Shown: positions 2,554 through 51,865 of the stretch, piece after piece
Layout of the letters: every line of letters begins with the position of its first letter
How positions within the stretch are numbered: the first letter of the stretch is position 1
Program-made: the position numbers and the translations under genes
Notes under the pieces: generated by a model
The model's input: only the letters and a program-made list of their open reading frames with translations
What the model was told of the DNA's origin: nothing
The model's database searches: none
From: Eubacteriales bacterium
Lineage (GTDB): Bacteria; Bacillota; Clostridia; Oscillospirales; CAG-272
NCBI GenBank assembly: GCA_045660785.1
Contig: JAZREL010000014.1
Coordinates: forward strand, 4,849 to 68,848
Direction of reading: 5' to 3'
DNA: 64,000 nucleotides

Positions 2554-3328
2554 TTTCTATTCCTCCGCTTTCTATGACCTCTAAGTATTTTTCGTTCAAC
2601 TCACATCCGACAAAATTTCTTTTTTGCCCTTTAGCAACAACACTCGTCATTCCCGAGCCGCTAAACAAATCCAAAACGATTGAGTTTTCATTACTGCTCG
2701 CCTTTACGATTCTTTCTATCATCTCATATGGCTTAACCGTTGGGTGCTTTAGCGCCCTAACCTTCCCATTCACCTTTTCCTTATGCCTTTGAGATGTTAT
2801 TTCCCAAACGTCATTACACAACTTTCCGTTTTCATTTGGAAACCAACGCTTTCCATTTTTGAGTATGCCTTTTTTTGCGGCGTGCGCCATTCTTTGCTTA
2901 GACTCATACGGTATTCTTATATCATCTGAATTGAATACATATTCATTTGTTTTGGTAAAAAACAGTATTGTTTCCTGAGCATTTACATACTTTCTTTTCG
3001 TGCTACTAAACCCATCTTTTTTATACCATGTTATCCAATTTCTATATTTGAGATCCTTGCTTCTCAAATAATTCAAAATTATCGCCGAATTGTATGCGGT
3101 GTTAAATACGTAAAGCGACGCATTGTTTTTCAGTTTTGGTATTACCTTATCAATCCAACCAAAGGTAAATTCAAAATATTTTTCCTCGCTCTCAAATGAA
3201 TCCCACTCACCCTTTTTTAGGTTGTATGGAGGATCTATTATCGCCAAATCGATACTTTCGTTTTCTAATTTATCTAAGAATTCAAAAACGTCAGCGTGGT
3301 AAACCTTATTAATTATCAAGTAGCTCAC
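2540..3328 (-). CDS. DNA methyltransferase, beta-class N6A/N4C family (DPPY motif)
   Basis: 262 aa. Motif IV IIDPPYNL near the N-terminus and motif I FSGSGMT near the C-terminus (beta permutation, ParB-less N6_N4_Mtase type). Overlaps the R gene by 14 nt. Start is GTG at 3328, or TTG 9 nt downstream. Confidence 0.85.
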   Translation of the reverse strand: MSYLIINKVYHADVFEFLDKLENESIDLAIIDPPYNLKKGEWDSFESEEKYFEFTFGWIDKVIPKLKNNASLYVFNTAYNSAIILNYLRSKDLKYRNWITWYKKDGFSSTKRKYVNAQETILFFTKTNEYVFNSDDIRIPYESKQRMAHAAKKGILKNGKRWFPNENGKLCNDVWEITSQRHKEKVNGKVRALKHPTVKPYEMIERIVKASSNENSIVLDLFSGSGMTSVVAKGQKRNFVGCELNEKYLEVIESGGIEIGRL

Positions 3329-4291: not shown

Positions 4292-4591
4292 ATGAATATC
4301 AATAAAAAAATAATTGATTTGTGCAACGAGCGAGGATGGTCACTTTACGAATTGTCCTTGCGTTCGGGCATCACTCAATCCTCGCTAAATTCGATGATGA
4401 AAAGAGGAAATCCTCCTAAAATTGAAAATTTACACTGCATTTGCGATGCATTTGGAATTACACTCTCGCAATTTTTTCTCGAAGACGAAAAGCTTGAAAT
4501 ATTGAGCGCCAATGAAAAAAAGCTTGTTTCATTATTTAGAAAATTACCTGCTAAAAAGCAAAGCGCTTTGATTGATTTGATAGATAGGTAA
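4292..4591 (+). CDS. XRE-family helix-turn-helix protein, candidate R-M controller (C protein)
   Basis: 99 aa from the ATG with GAAAGGGGG SD (the track ORF starts 26 codons earlier). HTH region WSLYELSLRSGITQSSLNSMMKRGN. Divergent from the R-M operon. Confidence 0.65.
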   Translation: MNINKKIIDLCNERGWSLYELSLRSGITQSSLNSMMKRGNPPKIENLHCICDAFGITLSQFFLEDEKLEILSANEKKLVSLFRKLPAKKQSALIDLIDR

Positions 4592-4596
4592 AACAA

Positions 4597-4630
4597 AAGG
4601 GCACTACATAGCGCCCTTTAATTATTTTTA
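4597..4630 (+). terminator. Rho-independent terminator
   Basis: AAGGGC-actacatagc-GCCCTT stem followed by a T-rich tract. Confidence 0.55.
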
Positions 4631-4649
4631 GCTTAGATTAAAACGGTAA

Positions 4650-4678
4650 TTGACATTTATTTTCGATAGTAGTATACT
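4650..4678 (+). promoter_or_regulatory. Sigma-A type promoter for upp
   Basis: TTGACA, 17 nt, TATACT, about 35 nt upstream of the upp start. Confidence 0.6.
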
Positions 4679-4713
4679 AAATACGATAAAGCTTAAATCA
4701 AGGGAGACTCACA

Positions 4714-5355
4714 ATGAAGGATTACAAAAACGTAGTTATTTTTAACCATCCGCTCATAAGACATAAAATTGCAATTTTGCGCGACGAGAAAACAAGCATG
4801 AAGGAGTTTCGTGAGCTTGTTGAGGAAATCACCACGCTTATGACGTACGAAAGCTTAAAGGACGGCGTGCCTACCACTGAAATCGAGGTAAAAACTCCGC
4901 TTGAGGTATGCAAGCAAACGGTTGTTTCGGACAATTCGATAGCTATCGTGCCTATTTTGCGCGCAGGACTCGGTATGGTAAACGGCGTTCACGTCCTTTT
5001 CCCATCCGCAAGGGTTGGCCACATTGGAATGTGCAGAAACGAAGAAACCCTAAAGCCCGACACTTATTACTGCAAGCTCCCTGACGGAATTGAAAACAAG
5101 CTTGTTTTGGTTGTTGACCCTATGCTTGCAACGGGCGGCAGCGCATGTGATGCAATTCAGCTTTTGAAGGACCGCGGCTGCAAGCATATTAAATTTATGT
5201 CAATTATCGGCGCACCCGAGGGCGTTTCTCGCGTTGCAGAGGCGCACCCAGACGTTACCGTCTACGTGTCAACTCTTGACAGATGCCTGAACGAAAACGG
5301 CTACATCCTCCCCGGCCTTGGCGACGCGGGCGACCGCCTTTTCGGAACTAAATAA
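4714..5355 (+). CDS. upp: Uracil phosphoribosyltransferase
   Basis: 213 aa. N-terminal HPLIRHKIAILRDEKT, PRPP-binding loop LVVDPMLATGGS and C-terminal YILPGLGDAGDRLFGT. Confidence 0.95.
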   Translation: MKDYKNVVIFNHPLIRHKIAILRDEKTSMKEFRELVEEITTLMTYESLKDGVPTTEIEVKTPLEVCKQTVVSDNSIAIVPILRAGLGMVNGVHVLFPSARVGHIGMCRNEETLKPDTYYCKLPDGIENKLVLVVDPMLATGGSACDAIQLLKDRGCKHIKFMSIIGAPEGVSRVAEAHPDVTVYVSTLDRCLNENGYILPGLGDAGDRLFGTK

Positions 5356-5362
5356 TTAAATG

Positions 5363-5392
5363 AAAAAGGACGAGTCAAGCTCGTCCTTTTTT
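5363..5392 (+). terminator. Rho-independent terminator
   Basis: AGGACGAG-tcaag-CTCGTCCT followed by TTTTT. Confidence 0.8.
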
Positions 5393-6692: not shown

Positions 6693-8264
6693 ATGAAAAA
6701 ACAACCAAAGCTTGACTCCTCCGGTTTTCGCAAATTCGGTATGCGCGACAAAATCGCATATGCGGCGGGCGACCTTGGCTGTAACATGAGCTTCTCACTC
6801 AAAAGCACGGTACAAACCTTCTGGCTTGTATTTATGATGATGGAAACAGGCCTGCTTTCAGCTCTTTTGATTCTCGTGCAAATTTGGGATGCAGTCAACG
6901 ACCCACTCATCGGCTCACTAATCGATGCCGACCACAGAAAATACAAGCACGGAAAATTCAAATCCTATATTTTCATAGGTGCTTGCGGCTTGCTTCTCGG
7001 CGGCGCGGCAGTTTTCCTCCCCTTCCCCGGCGCTCCAAAGCTTCTTAAGGCGGCTCTATTCATAGTTGGCTACGTTATTTGGCATGCATTCTACACAATT
7101 GCAAACGTGCCGTACGGCTCTATGCTTTCACTCGTTACAAAGGACGACGGTGAGCGCGCACAGCTCTCCACCTGGCGTTCAGTCGGCTCTATGATAGGAA
7201 ATATGCTTCCTATGATGATTCTCCCTGCTCTTATTTGGAGAAAGGTTACCGCGGGCGAATTTGCAGGACTTGTAGCCGAAAACAAAATCATCATCCCCGA
7301 GGGCTACTCACCCGACCAATTCCCGATAGACGAGGACGGCTTCGTTCTCAACCCGACAACGGGCGAAACGGTTGAGCTTTTGCTCGGCAACAGAGTTTTC
7401 TGGGTTGCTCTTATTATGGGCGTTCTCGGCTTCCTTTCATTTATGCTTATGCTAAAGCTTATCACCGTGCGCGTTGACGAAAACACAGTTAAGGCAAACG
7501 AGGGCGGCGGTGTTAAATTCAACATCTTCAAGGCGTTTGGCAAGTTTATGAGAAACCGCCCCGCAGTTGGCGCAACGGTTGCCGCTATGGGTATGTTCCT
7601 CGGTATGCAATCGGCAACAACGGCAAACACAATTATGTTTGCAACGCACTTTGGTATGGCTTCCCTTTCAGGTGTTGTACAAATTATCGGCTTCCTTCCG
7701 ATGTTTGCATTTATGCCATTCATCACTAAGATAGTAAAGAAATTCGGCAAAAAGGAATCAAGCGTTGTCGGCACTCTCGTTTCACTCGGCGGTGGCTTCA
7801 TTATGCTTATTTTCCCACTTATTCCACACAAAATCGCATCCTTGGTGGTTTACCTCATCGGACTTGTTTTCTTTGGCTTCGGTCTTGGCATTTACACCTG
7901 CGTTTCATGGGCGCTTATGGGTGACGCCATCGACTACAACGAATGGAAATTCGGCACTCGCGAGGAGGGCATGGTATATTCACTCCACTCCTTCTTCCGT
8001 AAGCTTGCACAGGGCGTTGGCCCATCCTTCGTGCTTTTGGTTATGGGTTGGCTCGGCTATGATTCAAAGCTTGGCACAATTCTTCAAACGGAGCAAACGG
8101 CAAAGAATATGTGTTGGCTCGTTGCAGGTCTTTACCTCTTTAGCGCGATTTTGCAATTTGTCGGTCTTGCGTTTATCTACAACCTCGACAAAAAGACGCT
8201 TTCCAAGATGACAAGCGAGCTAAATGCACGAAAAGCAGACACATCCCCCGAGATTTCAGAGTAA
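6693..8264 (+). CDS. Glycoside-pentoside-hexuronide (GPH):cation symporter
   Basis: Start moved to the ATG after AGGAG (17 codons into the track ORF). Has the GPH signature DAVNDPLIGSLID and about 12 hydrophobic segments. Confidence 0.85.
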   Translation: MKKQPKLDSSGFRKFGMRDKIAYAAGDLGCNMSFSLKSTVQTFWLVFMMMETGLLSALLILVQIWDAVNDPLIGSLIDADHRKYKHGKFKSYIFIGACGLLLGGAAVFLPFPGAPKLLKAALFIVGYVIWHAFYTIANVPYGSMLSLVTKDDGERAQLSTWRSVGSMIGNMLPMMILPALIWRKVTAGEFAGLVAENKIIIPEGYSPDQFPIDEDGFVLNPTTGETVELLLGNRVFWVALIMGVLGFLSFMLMLKLITVRVDENTVKANEGGGVKFNIFKAFGKFMRNRPAVGATVAAMGMFLGMQSATTANTIMFATHFGMASLSGVVQIIGFLPMFAFMPFITKIVKKFGKKESSVVGTLVSLGGGFIMLIFPLIPHKIASLVVYLIGLVFFGFGLGIYTCVSWALMGDAIDYNEWKFGTREEGMVYSLHSFFRKLAQGVGPSFVLLVMGWLGYDSKLGTILQTEQTAKNMCWLVAGLYLFSAILQFVGLAFIYNLDKKTLSKMTSELNARKADTSPEISE

Positions 8265-49922: not shown

Positions 49923-51290
49923 ATGATAAACAAAACAGTTGCCGCCATCTCAACCGCACACGGCAAGGGCGGTGTTGCGATAATCAGAATAAGCGGCGAT
50001 GATGCACTTGTTATTGCTAAAAAAGTGATGAAGCTTCGCTCCTCGCTAATTGAGCCGCGCAAATCCTACTACGGTGAAATTTTGCGAAGCGGTGAGGTTA
50101 TCGACGACGGAATTTTAACCTACTATAAAGCTCCCCACTCCTTTACGGGTGAGGACACTTGCGAAATTTGCTGTCACGGCGGTCTTTACGTTACGGGCGC
50201 GGTGCTTGAGGCGGTACTTTCAGCAGGGGCAACCTTGGCAGGCGCGGGCGAATTTACAAAGCGCGCTTATATCAACGGCAAGCTGACGCTTTCGCGCGCC
50301 GAGGCGATAGGACAGGTAATTGATGCAAAAACAGATGCACAGCTTCGCCTTTCCTCCTCGCAGGCAAGAGGCACGCTTTCCCGCAAGATTGATACGATTC
50401 GAGAAGCTATTCTTAGCTGTATCTCACACGCATATGCAACAATTGACTACCCCGACGAGGACATTACGGAAATTGAAATTTCCGAGATTAATTCTTGCCT
50501 TGACACAGTAATAAACGAGTTAACCGCGCTCAAAAGCTCATACCACACGGGCCGTGCGGTTTGCGAGGGAATAAAAACCGCAATTATCGGCAAGCCAAAC
50601 GCGGGAAAAAGCTCCGTTTACAATATGCTCCTTGGTGAGGATTTGGCTATTGTCACAGATATTGCAGGCACAACGCGCGACGTTATCGAGCATACTGCAT
50701 CAGTTGGCGGCGTTACCCTTTCTCTTGCCGATACAGCAGGCATACGCGATGCACTTGACACCGTTGAAAAAATAGGAATTGAAAGAGCGCGCAAAAAGGT
50801 TGAAAGCTCCGAGCTGCTTTTGTGTGTTTTTGACTCCTCCGAGAAGGAAACCGACGAGGACGAGCTTATTTTAGAGCTTGCAAGCGGAAAAACCGCTATC
50901 GCAATAATAAATAAAACGGATAAGGAAAGCTCTCTTTCCGCCGAATTTCTTAGAAAGATTGAAGCGGTGTGCCAAAACGTTATCTATGCAAGTGCTAAGG
51001 ATGGCGTTGGCATGACCGAGCTTGAAAAGGTGCTAAGCGAAATGTACCGCCTTGGTGAAATCAACCTTTCCTCAGATGCGGTAATTGCAAATGCAAGACA
51101 GTTTGCCGCCACGGAATCAGCGCTTGAAAAAGCACTTGAAGCAAAAAGCGCACTTGCATTTGGCGAAACACCCGATATTATTTGCTTTTCACTTGAAAGC
51201 GCCCTTGGCGAGCTTAATATGATTGACAGACGCGAGGTTAGCGAGGAGGTTGTTTCGGCAATTTTCTCACGCTTCTGTGTTGGCAAGTAG
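49923..51290 (+). CDS. mnmE: tRNA modification GTPase MnmE
   Basis: 455 aa. GKGGVAIIRISG, GKPNAGKSS, DTAGIR, NKTD and C-terminal FCVGK. Confidence 0.95.
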   Translation: MINKTVAAISTAHGKGGVAIIRISGDDALVIAKKVMKLRSSLIEPRKSYYGEILRSGEVIDDGILTYYKAPHSFTGEDTCEICCHGGLYVTGAVLEAVLSAGATLAGAGEFTKRAYINGKLTLSRAEAIGQVIDAKTDAQLRLSSSQARGTLSRKIDTIREAILSCISHAYATIDYPDEDITEIEISEINSCLDTVINELTALKSSYHTGRAVCEGIKTAIIGKPNAGKSSVYNMLLGEDLAIVTDIAGTTRDVIEHTASVGGVTLSLADTAGIRDALDTVEKIGIERARKKVESSELLLCVFDSSEKETDEDELILELASGKTAIAIINKTDKESSLSAEFLRKIEAVCQNVIYASAKDGVGMTELEKVLSEMYRLGEINLSSDAVIANARQFAATESALEKALEAKSALAFGETPDIICFSLESALGELNMIDRREVSEEVVSAIFSRFCVGK

Positions 51291-51531
51291 TCGCGTTGCG
51301 ACATGAATTGTTGTTTCACAACATTAATTGCACATTTAGTGCATAAATTGTGCTTTGCACATGAATTGAAGCAAAGCTTCATAAATTACGTTTTCACGGC
51401 TTTAATTGACTAACGTCACAAATTATTACTCGCAACGTAAAATGCAACAGCGTTGCAATTCTTGCGTTTACGCAATTCATGACACAAAGTGTCAATTCAC
51501 GTCCGCAGGACAATTCATTCCTTAAAGGATT
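51290..51531 (+). repeat. Phased array of about 12 distinct mini-palindromes separated by a conserved CATNAATTG linker that inverts mid-array
   Basis: Forward linkers CAT(G/T/A)AATT(G/A) and CTTTAATTG are at 51302, 51322, 51342, 51360, 51380 and 51400. Reverse linkers CAATTC(T/A)(T/C)(G/T) are at 51456, 51473, 51493 and 51511. Between them lie hairpins such as GTCGC-gtt-GCGAC, GTTGT-ttc-ACAAC, GTGC-ttt-GCAC, GAAGC-aaa-GCTTC, GCAAC-agc-GTTGC, GACAC-aaa-GTGTC and GTCC-gca-GGAC. Confidence 0.75.
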
Positions 51532-51535
51532 TATT

Positions 51536-51865
51536 ATGGATACTAAAAGATTTACAAAAAACGATAACGGCTTTATTTGCGAAAATTGCGGACACGAGGT
51601 TTTGCCCCTTGGCTACACCTCTCGCAATCATTGTCCAAAATGTCTTGCCTCAAAGCACGTTGACATTTTACCGGGTGACAGACAAAACCCGTGTGGCGGC
51701 GTTATGGACGCGATAAAGGTAGAGCCCGACCCAAAAAAGGGCTACGTAATTATACATAAATGCCGCAAATGCGGTGAGATTAAGCGCAACAAGGCGGCGC
51801 ACGAGGCAAAAAATCAGCCCGACGATATAAAAAAGCTAATCAAGCTGACCGCAGGTGGATTTTAA
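51536..51865 (+). CDS. RNHCP domain-containing protein
   Basis: Start at MDTKRF (19 codons into the track ORF). CENCG...SRNHCPKCLASKHVD...CGG...CRKCG matches the RNHCP zinc-ribbon domain. Confidence 0.75.
   Translation: MDTKRFTKNDNGFICENCGHEVLPLGYTSRNHCPKCLASKHVDILPGDRQNPCGGVMDAIKVEPDPKKGYVIIHKCRKCGEIKRNKAAHEAKNQPDDIKKLIKLTAGGF

Follow-up and report, generated by a model that had tools for sequence, protein, structure and literature searches.

A spacer between mnmE and RNHCP is one copy of a dispersed hairpin-array family related to Gut-1 RNA and tied to IVP genes

Among described elements, the one closest to the array considered here is Gut-1 RNA (Rfam RF01706), introduced in 2010 as a free-standing sRNA of three hairpins, found in human-gut metagenomes only and given no function (Weinberg et al. 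2010, PMC2864571). A dyad layout, a link to IVP genes and a link to tRNA genes are not mentioned in that description (PMC2864571). In the 23S rRNA intervening sequences that encode IVP, and from which the PF05635 family takes its name, the gene lies within or is flanked by inverted repeats and is tied to stable-RNA genes. Integron attC sites and DGR target hairpins illustrate how a folded single strand can be recognised while the stem sequence is free and the strand matters. In DGRs, the target site combines a GC stem with a loop of the GNNA type, and the system employs Avd, a protein related to IVP. REP/BIME elements and REPINs are short palindromes dispersed in intergenic DNA, clustered in alternating or inverted orientation and variable between strains; REP/BIME elements are transcribed and affect mRNA stability. 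MITEs such as pneumococcal BOX and Neisseria Correia elements are small, non-coding and multi-copy, with inverted-repeat ends and variable internal modules, and a coding 'full' form exists alongside the commoner non-coding copies. In CRISPR arrays conserved and variable segments alternate regularly, repeating every few tens of nucleotides, and CsrB/RsmZ RNAs present a reiterated short protein-read motif on many small hairpins. Gut-1 is compared in detail with the array described below; the other elements broadly resemble this array, or the family to which it belongs, in the respects just given, and each departs from it in ways that we point out in turn.

The window, as we call the whole 64-kb stretch of DNA analysed, carries the array at 51290-51535, in the spacer between mnmE and RNHCP; a radical SAM gene and a gene for an LRR protein are the other neighbours. 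The sequence agrees with the mini-hairpin array that a preliminary description had read there. The spacer contains 11-12 G...C-closed mini-hairpins, whose stems differ in almost every unit, and linkers that are of the CATNAATTG type in the left half and of its reverse complement, CAATTCAYG, in the right half. The left half (51290..51425, + strand) consists of seven units, each a G..C hairpin and then a CATNAATTG-type linker; read on the minus strand it becomes hairpin-CAATTNATG, the 'L' orientation of the family (RTGAATTG + hairpin). Unit 1 (51290..51310) has the hairpin GTCGC-GTT-GCGAC (51290-51302), the first G of which is the final base of the mnmE stop codon TAG, and the linker CATGAATTG (51302-51310). 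It is followed on the same strand by unit 2 (51310..51330; GTTGT-TTC-ACAAC, linker CATTAATTG), unit 3 (51330..51350; GCAC-ATTTA-GTGC, linker CATAAATTG), unit 4 (51350..51368; GTGC-TTT-GCAC, again linker CATGAATTG) and unit 5 (51368..51388; GAAGC-AAA-GCTTC, linker CATAAATTA). The stem of unit 5 was found again in a related locus, L002, and in a phage contig, L015. The last two units of the left half are imperfect: unit 6 (51388..51408, + strand) has a degenerate hairpin, ACG-TTTTC-ACGG (51388-51399), before its linker CTTTAATTG, and unit 7 (51407..51425, + strand; TGAC-TAAC-GTCA) has a degenerate linker, ACAAATTA.

Unit orientation reverses across a degenerate centre, TTACTCGCAACGTAAAA (51426..51442), and the centre of the array contains TCGCAACG, which is able to pair with unit 1. 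Across the centre, positions 51415-51443 weakly resemble a promoter (GTCACA-17-TAAAAT, 9/12); divergent promoters as the purpose of the centre were rejected, the centre of canonical copies being only 13-20 nt long. The right half (51443..51519, + strand) is in the family 'R' orientation and comprises four hairpin + CAATTCNYG units, namely TGCAAC-AGC-GTTGCA / CAATTCTTG, GCGT-TT-ACGC / CAATTCATG, GACAC-AAA-GTGTC / CAATTCACG and GTCC-GCA-GGAC / CAATTCATT. A terminal palindrome, TCCTT-A-AAGGA (51519..51535, + strand), forms a fifth right-half unit and bears the Shine-Dalgarno (SD) motif AAGGA (51525-51529), which a 6-nt spacer separates from the RNHCP ATG at 51536. The array supplies the SD sequence of RNHCP. 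The unit description given earlier stands overall, except that unit 6 is degenerate and that most of the palindromes are one pair longer (TG...CA) than stated. The layout is CRISPR-like only in its regular alternation. Here it is a short linker of 7-9 nt that is conserved, and the variable segments pair with themselves. Each unit measures only some 20 nt, orientation flips midway and no cas genes lie nearby; a CRISPR array proper, with near-identical direct repeats of 23-50 nt and unique, non-palindromic spacers of similar length, was rejected for the window.

Such an arrangement is not expected by chance. Counting perfect, non-overlapping hairpins with a stem of at least 4 and a loop of 2-5, we found 11 in the array, as opposed to 4.4 +/- 1.6 (maximum 10) in 2000 dinucleotide shuffles, none of which reaches 11. 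The tetramer AATT occurs 11 times, with nine successive spacings of 17-21 nt (shuffles: mean 0.23, maximum 4). Dinucleotide shuffling had been named beforehand as the control on which the array could fail, and the shuffles fall far short of it in both hairpins and AATT periodicity. All five exact CATNAATTG matches in the 64-kb window lie within the array, and the combination of hairpin density with AATT periodicity is absent from every other 245-nt tile of the window. A second hairpin-rich tile at about 35100 proved to be an ordinary AT-rich promoter/terminator region. Tandem Repeats Finder run on the window left the array undetected and returned one trivial 11-nt row.

Several known kinds of site were considered and rejected. 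An oriC/DnaA-box region does not apply, as mnmE lies here outside the ori cluster, and the only trace of parS or Noc sites is a chance half-site. TIGR-Tas and type III toxin-antitoxin arrays were dismissed for lack of an associated gene and on account of the units, which pair with themselves and are not long enough. An iteron, operator or centromere array of the parC or omega-heptad kind, with identical sites at fixed helical phase, is a poor match in view of the variable spacing and the lack of a par- or rep-type gene. An intrinsic terminator or attenuator was set aside because no +strand site was found in 51000-51700.

At the Rfam gathering threshold (50 bits for RF01706) the whole window gave no match. 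A permissive search placed RF01706 on the minus strand at 51469-51538 with 24.4 bits (E about 0.01). The alignment covers all 77 model positions and keeps the three hairpins in register, with UGAAUU replacing the linker UGAAAU. Both Gut-1 and the window array thus have at least three hairpins with free, covarying stems and a conserved heptamer between them, and both come from gut bacteria; they differ in the linker itself, which is GUGAAAU in Gut-1 and RTGAATTG in the window. With a score of 24 bits against the gathering value of 50, the array is best described as a new linker 'dialect' of the Gut-1 architecture. Further arrays of this dialect are likewise missed by Rfam. Bona fide Gut-1 matches (54-74 bits) turned out to be the left halves of arrays upstream of IVP genes, and the 2010 seed alignment also contains the mirror-image half. 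In the literature, full-text searches with the linker 9-mers retrieved matches to primers only, and no functional work on Gut-1, IVP, TIGR02436 or HEPN/Avd was found.

The preliminary description did not recognise the array as a member of a large family with copies dispersed over many genomes. In the present analysis we defined this family as the RTGAATTG-dialect dyad hairpin array, and the window array has its linkers, its G...C segments folding end to end and its single flip of orientation. A scan of genome contigs with a three-linker pattern matched at least 120 stretches, and all loci examined were MAG or metagenome contigs. Among the matches listed, the dominant layout is LLLL-centre-RRRR, about four left and about four right units over some 280 nt; the hosts are almost all Oscillospiraceae, Acutalibacteraceae, Christensenellales or 'Scatosoma' MAGs from gut and rumen; and the location is almost always intergenic (between co-directional genes in 52 cases, convergent in 23 and divergent in 16). 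The orientation of the array relative to the flanking genes is free. Several arrays start at the preceding gene's stop codon, and many copies adjoin or contain terminator-like hairpins. Arrays also occur in consecutive intergenic gaps of phage contigs that encode terminase and portal proteins. These contigs were obtained after filtering by hairpin content and spacer diversity, as the first viral scan gave mainly ordinary tandem repeats, and no genes are common to the window and the array-bearing phage contigs. At the loci inspected, unrelated tandem repeats were excluded as an explanation of the arrays. One discrete 289-nt copy with sharp ends occurs on two different contigs of the same MAG at 95.8% identity. 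No target-site duplication was found at four junctions, nor at the mnmE/RNHCP site in comparison with empty sites, and no transposase, integrase or reverse transcriptase is present among the recurrent neighbour genes of the arrays. In these respects the family differs from MITEs, as it does in that the 'terminal inverted repeat' is reiterated about four times per arm, with hairpins between the copies.

Stem evolution was analysed in 92 distinct 13-nt inter-linker segments from many genomes, chosen irrespective of pairing. Of the cells in these segments 94% pair, compared with 60% after shuffling. For covariation the score reaches 0.81 vs 0.17 (none of 500 shuffles scores as high), and the three inner stem pairs use all four Watson-Crick types. 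The earlier proposal that the linker and the ability to fold are conserved while the stem sequence is free is thereby supported. Across the family there are 147 distinct stems, and end-anchored hairpins make up 85% of 635 segments. Differences between tandem copies fall mainly in loops, both in L243 (14/53 loop cells vs 5/128 stem cells) and in L001 (14/108 vs 1/202). The family unit can be written as a G...C-closed hairpin of 3-7 bp and free sequence, whose 3-4-nt loop is closed by a C-G pair, together with a conserved linker of 7-9 nt. Loops are GNA or GNNA with the C-G closing pair when read on the strand that has the hairpin ahead of CAATTCAY. This strand asymmetry reverses at the array centre, so that 'good' loops in both halves are never combined in one transcript. 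A comparison of G.U with A.C mismatches, aimed at which strand folds and whether this changes within the array, was underpowered, with 30 vs 17 on the R strand and only 13 informative cases in the IVP-oriented set. Given the covarying stems and the conservation of both linker and foldability, a single-stranded state is the best reading, in keeping with the RNA or ssDNA role suggested beforehand, and the hairpins presumably fold in this state in vivo. The array is in this like attC sites and DGR targets, but it has many small hairpins instead of one, and IVP is a stand-alone gene.

The sole recurrent neighbour gene family is IVP (12/120 loci, at a median distance of 40 nt, among the matches listed). 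Conversely, the dyad array lies directly upstream in 75 of the 80 IVP homologues that have enough upstream sequence, counted as at least three motif copies and typically about four forward and 3-4 reverse-complement ones. In one scan 549 relatives were counted. These data identify Gut-1 as one half of a dyad array, which in turn is the constant upstream partner of IVP genes. The adjoining gene encodes an Avd-like four-helix-bundle protein of 115-120 aa. Its median pI in this clade is 7.9, near neutral, whereas Avd is strongly basic, and the sole solved relative, 2RLD, is uncharacterised. Many array + IVP modules are located directly after tRNA genes, and in L198 and L122 the IVP ORF lies between opposed array arms. 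Linker dialects (RTGAATT, ATGAAAT, GTGAAAT, ATGATAT, GTGATAT, GCTAAAT, TGAAGTA) map onto IVP clades. Although identity between these clades is only 40-60% and their linkers differ, the architecture of about 4 + 4 units and the IVP-adjacent position are retained. The match of dialect and clade could also reflect mere co-inheritance of neighbours rather than recognition. Array-only copies outnumber array + IVP modules several-fold, and the window holds one of them: neither tblastn nor a profile HMM run on six frames found an IVP gene in the 64 kb, so the array is an orphan copy and not a complete module. Lacking IVP, lying outside rRNA and tRNA loci and having hairpin/linker arrays as arms instead of one long stem, it differs from the 23S intervening sequences. 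PADLOC, run on IVP, RNHCP and the radical-SAM protein, gave no defence-system match.

The mirror-image linker sets, present in every dialect, invite a reading at the duplex level, in which a multimer of IVP or another protein binds the two sets as an operator- or centromere-like array and the palindromes act as spacers or cruciforms. In L265, L270 and L269 the array is indeed upstream of the IVP promoter and abuts it in an operator-like position. The promoter between array and IVP in L265 is near-consensus, which leaves the array outside the IVP mRNA and weakens a purely RNA-level model. In L210 the IVP belongs to a different subfamily and has contiguous, inverted heptad repeats without hairpins on its flanks, and the free orientation relative to flanking genes also fits. 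Against this, unit length varies across the family from about 16 to 22 nt and tracks hairpin length, so linkers would share no helical face unless the hairpins were extruded. The strict 20-nt helical phasing that had been put forward in favour of operator or centromere sites is accordingly not upheld. Binding to duplex DNA also leaves the covarying stems, the G...C and C-G closing pairs and the strand-specific GNA/GNNA loops unexplained, and in the RTGAATT dialect the array is usually part of the transcript, with the SD on one side and the promoter or an upstream ORF on the other. On balance we regard this reading as rather unlikely.

About equally unlikely, in our judgement, is a REP/BIME-like bidirectional RNA element that acts as an exonuclease barrier or weak pause or termination site and insulates genes, with no specific protein partner. 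For either direction of transcription, the distal half would show stable hairpins, each with an A/U-rich heptamer after it. Stable loops on the hairpin-before-linker strand in both halves fit a device that works from either side, and so do the intergenic location in all gene arrangements, the terminator-like hairpins in or beside many copies and the arrays that begin at stop codons. This reading does not account for the tight, dialect-specific IVP linkage or for linker conservation within clades; in addition, the linkers do not qualify as U-tracts, and prediction gives no +strand terminator for the window. Unlike REP/BIME elements, whose stems are sequence-conserved within a genome and which are tied to the RAYT transposase, the arrays have free stems and a conserved linker, their only associated gene encodes a four-helix-bundle protein and no RAYT transposase is found among their recurrent neighbours, so that they cannot be classed as REP/BIME.

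What we consider probable is that the mnmE/RNHCP spacer represents an orphan copy, expanded to some extent, of a dispersed dyad hairpin-array element that belongs to the superfamily of which Gut-1 is the GUGAAAU-linker variant, has the RTGAATTG/CAATTCAY dialect and is read by a clade-specific factor.

The same junction was then compared in relatives, traced via the RNHCP protein; an exact look-up of the window protein itself returned no record. Close relatives and the window have 0, 5, 12 or about 33 units at the mnmE/RNHCP junction. In L001 the spacer is 720 nt long and holds about 33 units, including a 55-nt higher-order repeat of three units. In L002-5 it is about 115 nt long with five R-type units, and in L006 and L214 the spacer is absent and the stop and start codons of mnmE and RNHCP overlap. 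In a different lineage an unrelated IVP cassette occupies the junction. The SD-bearing last unit is common to the window and L002 and absent in L001. Large and rapid copy-number changes with higher-order tandem blocks, seen in L001, L238, L243 and L225, together with presence/absence polymorphism and the degenerate units of the window, might be taken to indicate a functionless selfish minisatellite, prone to slippage and tolerated in intergenic DNA, with palindromes kept by hairpin-templated (quasipalindrome) mutation and gene conversion instead of selection. Such a minisatellite would hardly keep its dyad and its place beside IVP across clades as divergent as those above, nor conserved closing pairs and strand-specific loop classes, and we find this explanation improbable.

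The explanation favoured in the preliminary description was a dedicated cis-regulatory multi-hairpin leader that controls translation of RNHCP and the radical-SAM gene, either by SD occlusion or through pairing of unit 1 with unit 8. Part of its basis holds. In 51000-51700 all four terminator-like candidates are on the minus strand; with no +strand terminator between mnmE and RNHCP, the array is predicted to be co-transcribed, as had been assumed. The +strand RNA of the window array folds with z = -4.0 relative to shuffles, and the minimum free energy structure contains all local hairpins plus the unit 1/unit 8 helix. The SD falls within the last palindrome, which is kept in L002. Neither partner of the unit 1/unit 8 helix, by contrast, is kept in relatives, and a locus-specific device is contradicted by the 0 (L006, L214), 5 (L002) or about 33 units (L001) in the same operon, by the unrelated IVP cassette at the junction in the other lineage and by the presence of the same element at more than 100 unrelated intergenic sites and in phages. 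We therefore consider a dedicated leader very unlikely. The window copy is probably of little consequence for the mnmE/RNHCP operon and, since its L and R linkers are degenerate and do not compensate each other, may be decaying.

According to the reading that we favour, an orphan copy of the dispersed element, the array would have landed in a permissive mnmE/RNHCP junction. The canonical element comprises about four units one way, a short centre and about four mirror-oriented units, and its complete form is a two-part module with the array directly upstream of the IVP gene. The junction in the window, 'AATTCAT-TCCTTAAAGGA-N7-ATG', has the same form as array/IVP-gene junctions such as 'AATTCAT-TCTAAAGGAG-N7-ATG' in L175. 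The hairpins would fold in single-stranded nucleic acid, at this locus presumably the mnmE-RNHCP transcript. Their role would be structural, keeping the linkers exposed at regular intervals so that a clade-specific factor can recognise them. The IVP protein is the best candidate for this reader, since the dialect of the linker differs from one IVP clade to the next. CsrB/RsmZ RNAs would be a parallel, though they are discrete genes with the GGA motif placed in loops, while the array has its motif between hairpins and is itself dyad-symmetric and dispersed. At this locus the array would have no dedicated regulatory role for the operon and would separate cistrons that overlap in relatives. Stable hairpins from the mnmE stop codon onwards would probably affect mRNA decay or translation only incidentally, like REP elements.

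Arrays of this kind break short-read assemblies and change length between strains, and they therefore matter for MAG quality and strain typing. The family also ties together two orphans: Gut-1 RNA, which Rfam lists with neither function nor organism, and the IVP / TIGR02436 'four helix bundle protein' family, a widespread family without a known role whose structure relates it to Avd of the DGRs. The link turns a vague motif into a testable protein/nucleic-acid pair. Tentatively, and with distinctly less confidence than we place in the orphan-copy reading, array and IVP may form an unrecognised two-component system. In it an Avd-like protein would read a clade-specific linker of 7-9 nt between sequence-free hairpins of a mirror-symmetric array with about 4 + 4 units, and the system would colonise gene ends, among them the 3' ends of tRNA operons, and shed array-only satellites, of which the window array would be one, to chromosomes and phages. 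If true, this would provide a function both for Gut-1, unexplained since 2010, and for the IVP family, named in the 1990s.

The 245-nt spacer between mnmE and the RNHCP gene (51290-51535) is organized as the preliminary description had it. The left half (51290-51425) consists of seven units, in each of which a CATNAATTG-type linker follows a short palindrome closed by G...C, and a degenerate centre (51426-51442) leads into a right half of four units with the reverse-complement linker CAATTCNYG. The terminal palindrome, TCCTT-A-AAGGA, indeed contains the RNHCP Shine-Dalgarno sequence (SD), 6 nt ahead of the ATG at 51536. Dinucleotide-preserving shuffling, the proposed check, left the array well outside expectation: it has 11 non-overlapping perfect hairpins (4.4 ± 1.6 in 2000 shuffles, none of which had 11) and 11 AATT motifs with nine successive spacings of 17-21 nt (shuffle mean 0.23, maximum 4). 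All five exact matches to CATNAATTG in the 64-kb window lie within the array. The gene neighbourhood comprises mnmE, the RNHCP-domain protein, a radical-SAM activase-like protein and an LRR surface protein. As initially suspected, no plus-strand terminator was found between mnmE and RNHCP, and the array is therefore part of an operon transcript; in its predicted plus-strand RNA fold all of the local hairpins form (z = -4.0 versus shuffles). A weak sigma-70-like match directed at RNHCP in the degenerate centre (51415-51443; GTCACA-17-TAAAAT, 9/12) is probably due to chance, or could give some independent RNHCP transcription.

The corresponding junctions of relatives, reached through RNHCP homologues, differ. 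In L001 (GCA_052836005.1; RNHCP 91%) a 720-nt spacer holds about 33 units, most of them in roughly nine repeats of a 55-nt block of three units, and in contigs L002-L005 (RNHCP 90%) a spacer of about 115 nt holds five units, all of the right-half type. There is no spacer in L006 (RNHCP 79%) and L214 (82%), the mnmE stop overlapping or abutting the RNHCP start. L210 (83%) carries a different insertion, a gene for an Avd-like four-helix-bundle protein (IVP) between inverted GCAGCCGCCAGCC-type heptad repeats, and L209, L211 and L213 (83%) carry remnants of it. The junction is therefore an insertion hot spot, of which the array is a recent and fast-changing occupant. Unit numbers of 0, 5 or about 33 at the same junction speak against the operon-specific role suggested initially. 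Empty sites have no SD of their own, and the right end of the window array (AATTCAT-TCCTTAAAGGA-N7-ATG) matches array/IVP junctions in form; the RNHCP ribosome-binding site was therefore either brought in by the element or evolved in it, on separation of two overlapping cistrons. The L210 junction (870-1515), from another lineage, holds a PF05635 gene (120 aa) of another IVP subfamily. This gene is flanked by inverted contiguous heptads, CAGCCGC/CAGCCGT... upstream and CTGGCGG/CTGACGG... downstream, each heptad array adjoining a hairpin, AAATAGCG-GTAA-CGCTATTT; thus, inverted arrays of short repeats also surround IVP genes of another subfamily, in this case with no hairpins as spacers. The four independent short-read (Logan) contigs L002-L005 share an identical first base, which lies 36 nt ahead of the mnmE stop and a little upstream of the array, consistent with assembly breaks from strain variation or repeats at the junction.

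A pattern of three phased linkers was searched for in viral contigs and in one genome per species. Viral contigs yielded true relatives, with differing hairpins between identical linkers, RTGAATTG units (L) on the left and CAATTCAY units (R) on the right, occupying successive intergenic gaps around terminase and portal genes. The portal genes are P22-like. L015 has arrays at 210-390, 2860-3030 and 4500-4780, and other array-bearing phage contigs are L048, L070, L072, L028/L040, L054/L084 and L037; none of these contigs has an IVP gene within the stretches covered. Some phage and bacterial copies share the stems GAAGC/GCTTC, GTCC/GGAC, GACAC/GTGTC and GAAATC/GATTTC. The genome scan, biased to one linker variant ('dialect'), returned at least 120 stretches, almost all from gut or rumen Clostridia MAGs. 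Among the matches listed, hosts include Oscillospiraceae, Acutalibacteraceae, Christensenellales and 'Ca. Scatosoma', and the dominant layout is LLLL-centre-RRRR (about 270-300 nt), with occasional arm expansions of up to 13 units and more than one copy at several loci. These arrays are nearly always intergenic (flanking genes co-directional in 52 cases, convergent in 23 and divergent in 16).

One MAG (CAMVNO01) carries a discrete 289-nt copy on two different contigs, 95.8% identical and with similarity stopping sharply at the element ends, and a third, more diverged copy in the opposite orientation. The copies lie at L092 604-891, L145 7688-7977 and L104 about 5075-5370; the repeat unit takes in a long terminator-like hairpin on either side (GAGGGTGTTCAGAAAC...GTTTTCGAACACCCTC and AGGGGMTGTTAAGAAA...TTTCTKAACAKCCCCT), and inter-copy changes fall mainly in hairpin loops. 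No target-site duplication was found at the array junctions inspected, and the recurrent neighbours of the matches listed include no transposase or integrase. Several variants were also seen. L098 has two mutually inverted arrays about 5 kb apart (1829-2140 and 6930-7263; 82.7% over 318 nt), and their similarity extends into the flanks, like arms of a large inverted repeat around a ~5-kb segment. R units precede L units in L191 (438-744), L108 (4185-4494), L205 (7618-7927) and L129 (2453-2707), around a ~50-nt core bracketed by TCCTGCAG...CTGCAGGA; the core may be a remainder after gene loss, as L122 has an IVP ORF at the equivalent position (RRRR-IVP-LLLL). In many RTGAATT-dialect arrays (L089, L090, L095, L175, L186, L202, L162 and L206) the centre is followed by a conserved non-palindromic unit, GGAGCGAAGCGAGAAATCATG, which contains GCGAAGC and confers polarity on the element. 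This unit is absent from the window copy and tandemly amplified at least five times in L225 (1000-1500 and downstream). At five orthologous rlmD-like methyltransferase-array-IVP loci (L175, L186, L103, L206 and L120) the methyltransferase stop TGA lies inside the first linker (cgACA-ATGAATTG), and in the window hairpin 1 overlaps the mnmE TAG; arrays therefore often start exactly at an ORF end.

Conservation of linker and foldability rather than stem sequence, as originally proposed, is borne out across the family. Among 635 inter-linker segments, 94% begin with G and end with C, and 85% fold end to end with at least three pairs, using 147 different stems. For 92 distinct 13-nt segments, selected on length alone, standard pairs make up 94.1% of cells; column shuffles give 60% and slid partners 21-42%. 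A covariation score of 0.81 compares with 0.17 in shuffles (as high in 0 of 500), and A-U, U-A, G-C and C-G are used about equally at the three inner pairs. The loop-closing pair of perfect hairpins is C-G in 84%. Viewed on whichever strand places the hairpin ahead of CAATTCAY, both halves have mostly GNA/RNA triloops and GNNA tetraloops, which means that the favoured strand changes over at the centre. This flip is confirmed by a second, independent set, oriented on the IVP gene and covering several dialects, in which the first loop base is T in 77 of 99 left-half hairpins and G or A in 75 of 93 right-half ones. Recent tandem duplicates differ from one another in their loops (14/53 loop versus 5/128 stem cells in L243, and 14/108 versus 1/202 in L001). 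Linker spacing varies (about 16-22 nt across the family) because unit length tracks hairpin length. This does not fit the 20-nt helical phasing first envisaged and argues against rigid B-DNA phasing and for folded-out hairpins.

All-against-all ORF clustering at the genome loci (at least 120) revealed, among the matches listed, a sole recurrent neighbour family. Its members, 115-120 aa long, match PF05635 (23S rRNA intervening sequence protein) as well as TIGR02436 ('four helix bundle protein'); they occur in 12 of 120 loci, with a median distance to the array of 40 nt. At ten of these the gene comes immediately after the complete array, with an SD and then the ATG downstream of the last CAATTCAT. 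The IVP ORF is within the array centre in L198, and between the R and L arms in L122. In the reverse search, with the IVP alignment as query, one viral locus showed two tandem GTGAAAT-dialect arrays upstream of IVP, and the best 80 of 549 metagenome relatives were kept. In the combined set with enough upstream sequence, which includes near-duplicates among several metagenome loci (e.g. L266-L275), 75 of 80 IVP loci contain a single short motif at least three times in the 400 nt upstream, typically as about four forward and 3-4 reverse-complement copies with hairpins between. The motif varies by locus (RTGAATT, ATGAAAT, GTGAAAT, ATGATAT, GTGATAT, GCTAAAT or TGAAGTA), and the dialects correspond cleanly to clades in the IVP tree. 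Nearly all sequences come from MAGs or metagenome contigs. Complete arrays are constantly associated with IVP genes, and dialect matches clade, a match that co-inheritance without recognition could also produce. The family has one solved relative (2RLD, uncharacterised), PADLOC gave no match for IVP, and this clade is near neutral in charge. As neither tblastn nor a profile HMM found an IVP gene in the 64-kb window, the array stands here as an orphan. Degeneracy in several of its linkers, together with the lack of mutual compensation between L and R linkers, suggests a drifting copy.

In permissive mode, Rfam aligned window 51469-51538 (minus strand) to the whole Gut-1 RNA model (RF01706) at 24.4 bits, the gathering score being 50. 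The Gut-1 consensus has three covarying hairpins with GUGAAAU between, and is the architecture of the window array with another linker. Gut-1 was described from human-gut metagenome sequence as probably an RNA and not cis-regulatory (PMC2864571); our literature search found no work on it later than 2010. The raw seed alignment contains a mirror-image half downstream, e.g. GUGAUAUU units then AAUAUCAC units, which passes without comment in that 2010 paper (PMC2864571). Against the Gut-1 model, arrays of GTGAAAT and related dialects reach 54-74 bits, the match always covering the left half on the IVP strand; Gut-1 is therefore half of an IVP-upstream array.

Modules (array plus adjacent IVP gene) of non-RTGAATT dialects usually follow a same-strand tRNA gene or cluster and its terminator, in the order tRNA, terminator, array, IVP. 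At least ten distinct tRNA contexts occur (Val, Ser, Arg, Asn, Thr-Tyr, Met, Gly, Cys and Gln among them), at L248, L250, L252, L255, L258, L265-L273, L275, L276, L280, L283, L286, L288, L291-L294 and L297, with the tRNA ending about 250 nt upstream of IVP (itself at about 1501). No tRNA was found beside RTGAATT-dialect modules. The position after tRNA genes echoes the 23S rRNA intervening sequences that gave the IVP family its name, and suggests that the module targets, or depends on, stable-RNA operon ends. L265 has an 11/12 TG-extended promoter between array and IVP; L202, L193 and L143 have a near-consensus promoter ahead of the array.

The window array, then, belongs to a dispersed family whose copy number changes rapidly and whose hairpins covary and have defined closing pairs. 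Conservation of the architecture across IVP clades makes a purely neutral minisatellite unlikely. The main protein-independent rival is a REP-like role, in which transcription from either side would run into stable hairpins in the distal half. C-GNA-G loops form very stable DNA mini-hairpins; this loop preference, the dyad symmetry, the loop-asymmetry flip and the arrays upstream of promoters keep a DNA-level role alive. Of RNA, ssDNA and extruded duplex, the candidate active forms, RNA is favoured at the window locus, RTGAATT-dialect arrays, the window's included, lying within transcripts. The hairpins would fold in single-stranded nucleic acid as sequence-free spacers displaying the linkers, which a clade-specific factor, with IVP the best candidate, would read; array-only copies may be satellites of the module.
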